A program made the translations under genes and the position numbers. The notes under the pieces were generated by a model. The model was not told where the DNA came from, did no database searches, and saw nothing but the letters and a program-made list of their open reading frames with translations. 11,413 nucleotides of DNA from a virus (lineage: Duplodnaviria > Heunggongvirae > Uroviricota > Caudoviricetes): the IMG/VR virus record IMGVR_UViG_2579779002_000004; one strand, given 5' to 3'. Positions 8,184 to 9,221 of this stretch are shown here, in pieces (the first letter of the stretch is position 1; each line of letters begins with the position of its first letter).

Positions 8184-8224
8184 GTAAAATCCCCGTCATA
8201 TGGCAATCAGTAAAGGAAATAAAT

Positions 8225-8425
8225 ATGTCATCGAAAAACCGTACCCGCAGAACCACAACCCGCAATATCCGTTTCCCCAATCACATGATTGAACAGATCA
8301 ACATCGCCCTTGAGCATAAAGGGTCCGGTAACTTTTCAGCGTGGGTTATTGAAGCCTGCAGGAGAAGGCTGGCAACAGATGCAACGCATCTGCGCCCGGC
8401 CAGCATGACAAATAACGAGAAATGA
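8225..8425 (+). CDS. Small ribbon-helix-helix (Arc/MetJ/CopG-like) DNA-binding protein
   Basis: The track ORF 8165-8425 is trimmed to the internal ATG at 8225, which has AAAGGAAAT 6-8 nt upstream; the 8165 start would overlap the HNH gene. The 66-aa product reads MSSKNRTRRTTTRNIRFPNHMIEQINIALEHKGSGNFSAWVIEACRRRL..., consistent with a beta-strand, helix, helix RHH fold. Confidence 0.6.
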   Translation: MSSKNRTRRTTTRNIRFPNHMIEQINIALEHKGSGNFSAWVIEACRRRLATDATHLRPASMTNNEK

Positions 8426-8556
8426 ACGTTCGGTTACAGGAGCAGGTACCCACTGTCCTCCAACAATATTTCATCTTCATATCCGACAGAACAAGACTTA
8501 CCCTGCCGGGATGTACAGAATAACAACAGAGTGATAATTAATTTCTGATGAAATAA

Positions 8557-8889
8557 TCAGGGTGCAGAAGGACTAAAGATAAACGTTTTCTTCACGCCTT
8601 TACACGGCCTGTCCTTCTCAAATCGCCATTTTGCCATCGCCTTTACAACCTGCTCATCAAACAGATGGTGCGGCTCTGAACGAATAAACTCAATTCGGGT
8701 GACAGTACCATCAGCACCAATATCAAACCTCACATCAACCCGTCCCTTTATATAATTTGCCGCTGCATAGGCCGGATATTGTGGTAATGCCTTAACCAAC
8801 TGTCGGGGCATATCTGTTTTATGTTGCGTACAGCCCATAACCAGAGAAGACAACAAAATAATTAACGGAAGATTTCTTTTCATTTTCAT
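8557..8889 (-). CDS. Lipoprotein with a TonB C-terminal-like domain (moron gene)
   Basis: Signal peptide with lipobox MKMKRNLPLIILLSSLVMGC; Thr at +2 suggests outer-membrane sorting. The mature part, PQYPAYAAANYIKGRVDVRFDIGADGTVTRIEFIRSEPHHLFDEQVVKAMAKWRFEKDRP, matches the TonB C-terminal domain pattern (YP..A....EG.V.V.F.I..DG.V..I....S.....FD..A..A...WRF.P). Start is taken at the ATG at 8889 with GGGGA upstream, rather than the GTG at 8898. The local sequence is AT-rich compared with the flanking phage genes. Confidence 0.65.
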   Translation of the reverse strand: MKMKRNLPLIILLSSLVMGCTQHKTDMPRQLVKALPQYPAYAAANYIKGRVDVRFDIGADGTVTRIEFIRSEPHHLFDEQVVKAMAKWRFEKDRPCKGVKKTFIFSPSAP

Positions 8890-8903
8890 TCCCCGCACAG
8901 ATA

Positions 8904-8920
8904 AGAATAAGTCTTATTCT
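8904..8920. promoter_or_regulatory. AT-rich palindrome AGAATAAgtcTTATTCT just upstream of the lipoprotein gene; candidate operator, loosely Fur-box-like
   Basis: A 7-3-7 perfect inverted repeat, 15-31 bp upstream of the lipoprotein start codon and within GATAAGAATAAGTCTTATTCT. Resemblance to the Fur consensus GATAATGATAATCATTATC is partial only. Confidence 0.3.
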
Positions 8921-9221
8921 AACAATGCCGCCCTGTCGGTCATCAATCCTCTGCTTAATGGCAACGACAATTATCCGACTTAAATCACAAATCAGACACA
9001 TGACATAACAGGGCTTGCGAGGTAACACATCGTCCTGTTTCTTCCACCATCGCACCGGACTGGCGACTATGAGGGGACAACGCCGCGCTCCGTTAACGCG
9101 GTAAACCCCGGTGTGTATCGTTTTTGATTATCCCCGCACACTCGCGCAGAGGAGTCTCCCTGTCGGGCTGCGGTCTCTGTTAATGAGGGAATACAGCGAC
9201 GATACGGCGCATCAGCAAAAC

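Follow-up and report, generated by a model that had tools for sequence, protein, structure and literature searches.

TonB-dependent transport can be inhibited by parts of TonB itself. Periplasmic TonB fragments engineered in the laboratory are reported to inhibit transport that depends on FhuA and FecA (Howard, Herrmann, Stratilo and Braun 2001, J Bacteriol 183:5885, as cited in passages of PMC9841981 and PMC6042079), and the passage of PMC9841981 that cites this work describes the effect of an overexpressed periplasmic TonB domain as inhibition of TonB-dependent iron import. A further passage of the same source, citing Tuckman 1992, states that a TonB-box pentapeptide reduces colicin killing and phi80 infection. 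Phages are also known to encode small lipoproteins directed at a TonB-dependent transporter. Llp of T5 and Cor of phi80, N15 and HK022 reside in the inner leaflet of the outer membrane, act on FhuA from the periplasmic side and exclude superinfecting phages (bioRxiv 10.64898/2026.03.26.714494). In this study, we analysed a gene for a TonB-like lipoprotein in an 11,413-nucleotide stretch of Caudoviricetes DNA (IMG/VR record IMGVR_UViG_2579779002_000004), which is referred to as a whole as the window. The gene lies between the lysis and packaging genes of a lambda-like Escherichia coli prophage.

Our preferred reading, to which we assign a probability of roughly 0.4, is that the product acts as a TonB decoy tethered to the outer membrane, competing at TonB boxes and excluding TonB-dependent phages and colicins. 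The sequence itself is no discovery, as it is annotated and widespread; the gap concerns its function. The new elements are the chromosomal relatives of the gene and the Fur boxes that precede them.

A TonB domain behind a lipoprotein signal

The product joins a lipoprotein signal peptide to a domain that matches the C-terminal domain of TonB. The domain is detected by Pfam TonB_C (PF03544; E 9.1e-15, 55.3 bits against a cut-off of 24.6) and by TIGR01352 (55.1 bits, cut-off 27.1), and phmmer aligned residues 28-106 with the E. coli and Salmonella TonB C-terminal domains among PDB sequences at E ~1e-15. An AlphaFold2 model built from a 23-sequence alignment reached a mean predicted local distance difference test (pLDDT) score of 84.8, with block means of 94-98 for residues 31-100; it superseded a single-sequence model that was unusably poor (pLDDT 53.5). 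In Foldseek, the model superposed on 1u07_A, 2gsk_B (BtuB complex) and 2grx_C (FhuA complex) with a root-mean-square deviation of 1.1-1.4 A, target TM-scores of 0.88-0.92 and 36-38% identity. Every PDB match at E <=0.01 was a TonB domain, and no match was found in BFVD, a viral structure library, at E <=0.001. An earlier note on this DNA, made from the letters alone, had proposed a TonB-like periplasmic C-terminal domain, to be examined by profile search and structure comparison, and both approaches bear it out.

The remainder of TonB is missing. We looked for the N-terminal inner-membrane anchor used for ExbB/ExbD coupling and for the proline-rich spacer of full-length TonB, and neither is present. 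In agreement, the NCBIfam TonB equivalog models scored 49-74 bits against cut-offs of 265-448, and none was passed.

In place of an anchor, the protein begins with a basic n-region, a hydrophobic core and the lipobox LVMG-C, in which Cys20 is encoded at 8830-8832. This cysteine is kept in nearly all full-length relatives from E. coli, Klebsiella, Raoultella, Pantoea, Erwinia, Sodalis and Salmonella, which upholds the lipobox signal peptide that the earlier note had read at the start of the protein. The residue at +2 of the cysteine is Thr in the window protein and T, S or A across the family alignments, never Asp. Because of this Thr and the lack of Asp, sorting to the outer membrane is predicted, and the mature protein is predicted to be a lipoprotein of the inner leaflet of that membrane. 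Only about eight residues (TQHKTDMP; 7-12 in relatives) separate Cys20 from the domain, which is therefore expected to sit close to the outer membrane on its periplasmic side. As for the extent of the gene, the open reading frame named in the earlier note is real, but RefSeq places its start two codons further in. Initiation at 8889 (MKMKRN...) yields 110 residues, and initiation at the next ATG, the RefSeq start at 8883 (MKRN...), yields 108. A Shine-Dalgarno sequence, GGGGA at 8890-8894, is better spaced for 8883 than for 8889.

Residues conserved in the family are mostly those of E. coli TonB. In the numbering of the 110-residue form, to which 125 is added to obtain TonB numbering (PDB sequence alignment), the conserved P36, Y38, P39, A42, G49, V51, F55, D56 and G61 correspond to TonB P161, Y163, P164, A167, G174, V176, F180, D181 and G186, and V63, P73, F77, V81, A84, W88, R89, E91 and P95 to TonB V188, P198, F202, V206, A209, W213, R214, E216 and P220. 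The YP motif (Y38-P39) is among them; this segment is implicated in TonB-box recognition and is present in the window protein. Strand beta3 is intact in the model (residues 96-105). In TonB complexes, the TonB box adds to beta3 as a parallel strand, and Q160 is the classical specificity position (PMC11658791). A family-specific change turns TonB L170 into Asn. The equivalent of Q160 is L35 (8785-8787) in the window allele and Y, Q or other residues in other family members. The tonB suppressor Q160L rescues TonB-box mutants of FhuA and colicin M (PMC11658791). L35 is the same change, which is only a curiosity, the position being variable in the family.

These features suggest how a decoy might work. 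Held at the periplasmic face, the domain would pair with TonB boxes wherever these are exposed, on TonB-dependent transporters or on group B colicins entering the cell. Since it is cut off from ExbB/ExbD, it could bind but not pull; pairing as TonB does, without delivering force, would make it a competitive decoy. The expected outcome is less success for T1- and phi80-like TonB-dependent phages, group B colicins and siderophore-microcins, at some cost in iron and B12 uptake. T5, which the earlier note had listed with the TonB-dependent test phages, does not belong here, as it is independent of TonB (PMC11658791). During lytic growth, the lipoprotein would be made from the late transcript. In lysogens, it would depend on its own promoter, which is clearly of the Fur type in several relatives, and its level would rise when iron starvation makes receptors abundant. 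A more far-reaching version of this proposal, which we regard as doubtful, is that the protein regulates TonB coupling as a natural dominant-negative. Induced along with the receptors in iron starvation, it would occupy TonB boxes and so shield the cell against TonB-dependent phages, colicins and siderophore-microcins as a class.

The same phenotype would arise from a different target if the domain formed heterodimers with the C-terminal domain of TonB and so pinned scarce TonB to the outer membrane. According to a passage of PMC9841981, TonB is limiting relative to the transporters, and a low-copy inhibitor would therefore work better against TonB itself. Moreover, aromatic residues F55, F77, W88, F90 and F105 match TonB F180, F202, W213, Y215 and F230, and crystal structures of TonB C-terminal fragments contain several chains per entry (two in 1u07, three in 1ihr and 1qxx). 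However, it is disputed whether TonB C-terminal dimers matter physiologically, and the short C-terminus of the window protein lacks the last TonB strand. We consider such trapping of TonB to be quite improbable.

Distribution, position and regulation

Of 5426 complete E. coli genomes, 1616 (~30%) carry the gene, and in 1611 genomes of this species the copy is near full length (match over at least 80% of the gene). The window allele type (at least 95% nucleotide identity) accounts for 414 carriers, and 1201 have a type that is ~73% identical to it. The former includes E. coli O157:H7 EDL933 and Shiga toxin 1a (Stx1a) phages. The latter is the type of phage 21, whose gene 73 (OL657228) lies between bor and cos, is annotated as 'TonB C-terminal domain protein' and encodes a product with 71% amino-acid identity to the window protein. 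In a prophage of sequence type 131 (ST131), the TonB-like gene stands between iss and nohD. More distant copies occur in a Klebsiella phage (41% identical), likewise between lysis and terminase genes, and in a prophage of Sodalis sp. RH21, between the lysozyme gene and terminase.

Other relatives are not carried by phages. Raoultella and several Klebsiella species have the gene at a fixed chromosomal locus beside lacI/lacZ and a glycine-zipper lipoprotein gene, while the copies in Pantoea, Erwinia and Salmonella lie among metabolic genes. An exhaustive search for the wider set returned proteins of 105-155 residues made up of a signal peptide, usually with a lipobox, and a single TonB_C domain. 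Hence, the family that combines a lipobox with TonB_C is not phage-specific, and copies outside prophages exist in chromosomes.

Among the matches listed, the RefSeq label is 'TonB family protein' throughout. Our search of the full-text literature and of genome and Stx-phage papers found no functional study of the TonB-like lipoprotein; the genome announcement (PMC9119081) gives no functional data, and PADLOC returned no match for the lipoprotein. The earlier note knew of no characterised prophage protein of this architecture, which is right with regard to function but leaves aside that the gene was already annotated in RefSeq, phage 21 and O157 prophages.

The gene is genuine and evolves under purifying selection. 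The ratio of nonsynonymous to synonymous substitution rates (dN/dS) is 0.11 when the window allele is compared with that of phage 21, from which it diverges at 29% of amino acids, and 0.26-0.30 among the chromosomal relatives. As a side observation, in many alleles of the phage 21 type the C-terminus is frameshifted so that beta3 is replaced or deleted, and one such form stands for 130 member sequences.

GC content is 0.41-0.47 over 8250-9150 and 0.55-0.60 in the terminase and Rz flanks. Out of 1904 genomes matching the 1151-bp region, only 412 carry at least 80% of its length, and the same site holds other contents elsewhere: bor or iss with the TonB-like gene in phage 21 and the ST131 prophage, a YlcI gene with the TonB-like gene in the window. 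The block thus shows a base composition unlike its flanks together with presence or absence among related phages at a fixed site, as is typical of a moron. These data agree with the earlier note, which had described an AT-rich stretch in the lysis-to-packaging position where lambda carries bor; in phage 21 and the ST131 prophage, the homologue adjoins bor or iss. The location after the lysis genes is common to four divergent phages (window, phage 21, Klebsiella phage and Sodalis prophage), and in all four contexts the TonB-like gene has the orientation of the late operon. At least late lytic transcription is therefore to be expected.

This position raises the question of a role in lysis. PHROGs places the protein in phrog_1267 (E 1.3e-42, category lysis), labelled 'Rz-like spanin', and a predicted outer-membrane lipoprotein encoded right after Rz/Rz1, in the orientation of the late genes, would suit a spanin or another lysis accessory. 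However, a complete Rz with an embedded Rz1 is already present in the window, and an AT-rich spacer of ~330 nt lies between Rz and the TonB-like gene. The protein has a compact globular TonB fold and not that of a proline-rich o-spanin, and its C-terminus (...KKTFIFSPSAP) has no hydrophobic segment, unlike a unimolecular spanin. In addition, homologues stand behind Fur boxes at non-prophage chromosomal loci. We regard a lysis function as extremely improbable and rejected the phrog_1267 label, which conflicts with both the TonB fold and the separate Rz/Rz1 pair and looks like an annotation error.

Regulation of the gene differs in clarity between the window and its relatives. The candidate sigma-70 promoter of the window (Table 1) is a consensus match only, three sites being found in the region where 1.8 are expected by chance. 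A Fur-box-like element close to the start codon contains a perfect 8+8 palindrome, AGAATAAG-T-CTTATTCT at 8904-8920, which overlaps the candidate -10. Its score of 13/19 is reached by ~2.5% of shuffles of the upstream region. The 80 near-identical prophage copies in IMG/VR are too alike to reveal constraint on the palindrome. In the relatives, by comparison, Fur boxes scoring 14-17/19 were found at 10 of 13 non-E. coli loci, ending from a few to ~20 nt from the start codon. The loci listed with strong boxes are four from Raoultella, two from Klebsiella, three from Pantoea, that of Erwinia typographi and the Sodalis prophage, and in most of them the box is the sole such site in 10 kb. Relative to the start codon, the element in the window lies where the homologues have their strong boxes. 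Judged from these sites, the TonB_C lipoprotein family is likely to be iron-regulated via Fur. We do not claim Fur control of the window allele, because a 13/19 match is not rare in the window.

Iron regulation would also be compatible with a protein that assists uptake. The lipoprotein could be an accessory of TonB-dependent transport that is induced by iron starvation and carried by the phage to improve iron acquisition of the lysogen; it might, for example, hold or protect exposed TonB boxes, or organise the transporters in the outer membrane. The strong Fur boxes that directly precede the gene in Raoultella, Klebsiella, Pantoea, Erwinia and the Sodalis prophage fit this idea, and so do the chromosomal orthologues that persist under constraint at a stable non-prophage locus. 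Yet a protein with no ExbB/ExbD or inner-membrane link is unable to energise transport, the sole experimental precedent for a free TonB C-terminal domain, as related in passages of PMC9841981, is inhibition, and a conserved partner gene is absent at the loci compared. A helper in iron acquisition therefore seems unlikely to us.

It may also be asked whether the gene does anything at present in E. coli. A captured and decaying fragment of a chromosomal gene, riding in a variable region without current function, would account for the many truncated or frameshifted alleles, for a promoter at consensus level only, for the lack of a recognisable terminator and for a Fur box that is degenerate in the E. 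coli alleles. Against such a passenger, the low dN/dS spans ~29% amino-acid divergence, near-full-length copies are found in well over a thousand genomes, and both the lipobox and the core of the domain are conserved across genera. This explanation is very improbable.

The earlier note had suggested competition with host TonB at TonB-dependent receptors, leading to superinfection exclusion or altered iron uptake, an idea that is reasonable but unproven. Competition at TonB boxes is also the reading we favour, and several observations weigh against it. Transporters far outnumber TonB, so a decoy for TonB boxes would have to be strongly expressed. The protein shares no more than 36-41% identity with TonB; the family has Tyr in place of TonB R166 and varies at the position of Q160. 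Frameshifted or truncated alleles without beta3 are common, above all in the phage 21 type. With respect to regulation, the Fur box of the window is weak, four more 13/19 matches occurring in its 11.4 kb, and in the commonest E. coli allele, that of phage 21, the box is absent and half of the palindrome is lost. A terminator search and folding found no terminator-like site after the gene (downstream fold z -0.7 and -0.2), and independent expression in lysogens is for this reason unproven. Finally, induction of the chromosomal relatives by iron starvation would be odd for a pure inhibitor of iron uptake. Our estimate for the decoy goes no higher because receptors outnumber TonB and because co-induction with iron starvation in the chromosomal relatives fits a helper or modulator about equally well.

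The surroundings of some relatives are recorded here as separate observations. In the Sodalis sp. RH21 prophage, the same lysis-to-terminase gap holds a second small lipoprotein gene (6242-6690; 108 aa, lipobox LAVSGC, no Pfam match), and more Fur-box matches of 14-16/19 lie around 6247-6271 and 6626-6689. Judging by these sites, the gap may contain a cluster of several iron-regulated accessory genes. In a Pantoea metagenome-assembled genome, a pore-forming colicin-domain gene and a phage-integrase fragment (2196-4733) lie 0.3-3 kb from a TonB_C lipoprotein gene that bears a Fur box. The TonB_C lipoprotein gene has a DUF1440 membrane-protein gene in its neighbourhood in Klebsiella phage ST13-OXA48phi12.4 (1277-1903) as well as in the Raoultella chromosome (6731-7294), which hints at a chromosomal segment picked up by the Klebsiella phage.

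The prophage around the gene

The window is the late region of a lambda-like E. coli prophage, with all large genes on the minus strand (Table 1). Positions 1-10118 are ~98% identical to a prophage of strain CFSAN061761 (NZ_CP042903), save for the copy number of a tandem repeat. The latter prophage is annotated and has a lambda-type tail with a protein J, the tip of which is identical to that of VT1-Sakai J and only 56% identical to lambda J. We know of no receptor assigned to the VT1-Sakai type of tip, and the attempt to name the receptor of the prophage from J was uninformative.

Table 1. Coordinates of the genes and sites in the window
Feature	Position	Strand	Basis
Portal	1729-3093	-	Open reading frame list and Pfam
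Prohead protease fused to major capsid protein	3305-5242	-	Open reading frame list and Pfam
Terminase large subunit	5306-6967	-	Pfam Terminase_2 and RefSeq
Terminase small subunit	6964-7527	-	Pfam and RefSeq
HNH endonuclease (downstream flank, start of packaging module)	7818-8183	-	Pfam HNH and RefSeq
AT-rich block with both accessory genes	8190-9070	.	Composition profile, GC 0.41-0.49
YlcI/YnfO (DUF3950), 66 aa	8225-8425	+	Pfam DUF3950 E 4e-20; NCBIfam YlcI_YnfO_N; RefSeq; PHROG 949 (function not assigned)
TonB-like lipoprotein gene	8557-8889	-	8557-8898 in the open reading frame list; RefSeq coding sequence WP_000828072.1 'TonB family protein' at the corresponding position of NZ_CP042903
TonB C-terminal domain, residues 28-106 (E. 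coli TonB 153-231)	8572-8808	-	Pfam/TIGRFAM, PDB alignment, AlphaFold model, Foldseek
Predicted lipoprotein signal peptide, MKMKRN-LPLIILLSSLVMG-C-T	8830-8889	-	Read from the sequence
Fur-box-like element with GATAAGAATAAGTCTTATT (8900-8918), 13/19 to consensus	8900-8920	.	19-bp Fur consensus scan
Candidate sigma-70 promoter: -35 ATGACC (8943-8938), 16-nt spacer, TG-extended -10 TAGAAT (8921-8916)	8916-8943	-	Consensus scan, 9/12
Rz i-spanin (upstream flank, last lysis-cassette gene)	9222-9689	-	Pfam Phage_lysis E 1e-49; RefSeq 'lysis protein'
Rz1 o-spanin embedded in Rz	9284-9469	-	Pfam Rz1 E 4e-22

The YlcI/YnfO gene is convergent with the TonB-like gene within the same AT-rich block, and it is the sole plus-strand gene in the phage part of the window. 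Directly after the portal, with a 4-base ATGA overlap, comes an open reading frame of 353 aa without Pfam matches (671-1732, minus strand). It holds a 162-bp (54-aa) tandem repeat in 2.3 copies, of which the 98%-identical prophage of NZ_CP042903 has two extra copies; in that genome, RefSeq fuses the equivalent frame with the portal into a 'frameshifted' pseudogene.

At the other end, an insertion sequence of the IS3 family (10119-11413; orfA 10172-10498, HTH_Tnp_1; orfB 10495-11385, rve) takes the place of the remaining lysis region. As homology stops at 10118, the lysozyme and holin genes of the NZ_CP042903 prophage no longer fall within the window, and this element may have broken up the lysis cassette.

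Comparison with known systems

The gene deserves attention for its reach, since it includes O157/Stx1 prophages, ST131 prophages and phage 21 within almost a third of complete E. coli genomes. If the decoy reading were true, the protein would be the first natural counterpart of the dominant-negative TonB fragments made in the laboratory. It would provide broad-spectrum exclusion of TonB-dependent phages, colicins, microcins and possibly siderophore-antibiotic conjugates, and it would represent a prophage factor that alters iron and B12 uptake in pathogens. The Fur boxes of the relatives offer a direct regulatory hypothesis.

The nearest described relatives are phage 21 gene 73 and the 'tonB-like membrane protein' of O157 prophage CP-933N, which belong to the same family and share architecture and position. 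The phage 21 type is 71% identical to the window protein and the copy in EDL933 99%; neither differs from it in kind, and their names are no more than annotation labels. The genes for Bor of lambda and Iss provide a parallel in genome organisation: they too encode accessory outer-membrane lipoproteins from the interval that separates the lysis genes from cos or terminase, and they adjoin the TonB-like gene in phage 21 and the ST131 prophage. Bor and Iss are linked to serum resistance, and their genes run opposite to the late operon. The TonB-like gene runs with that operon, and the fold of its product is unrelated to theirs.

With the C-terminal domain of E. coli TonB (~153-233; 1U07, 2GSK chain B, 2GRX chain C), the window protein has in common the fold, the YP motif, the core aromatics and beta3. 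It differs in having neither membrane anchor, nor proline-rich spacer, nor ExbB/ExbD coupling, with a lipoprotein signal instead; moreover, R166 is Tyr, Q160 is Leu and the chain ends 4 residues earlier. In the fragments of Howard et al. (2001), the TonB domain is likewise detached from its energy source. Whereas those were, according to the passages citing them, soluble laboratory constructs of TonB itself, the window protein is natural, diverged, predicted to be lipid-anchored, and found in phages and chromosomes.

Llp and Cor are likewise small phage lipoproteins acting on a TonB-dependent transporter, and the window protein resembles them in its predicted location. Its fold is unrelated to theirs, all significant Foldseek matches being TonB domains. 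Llp and Cor are specific for FhuA and alter its conformation, whereas a TonB mimic would act on the TonB box that is common to many transporters. Exclusion of this kind would be mimicry of the energy transducer of the host and not the block of one receptor.

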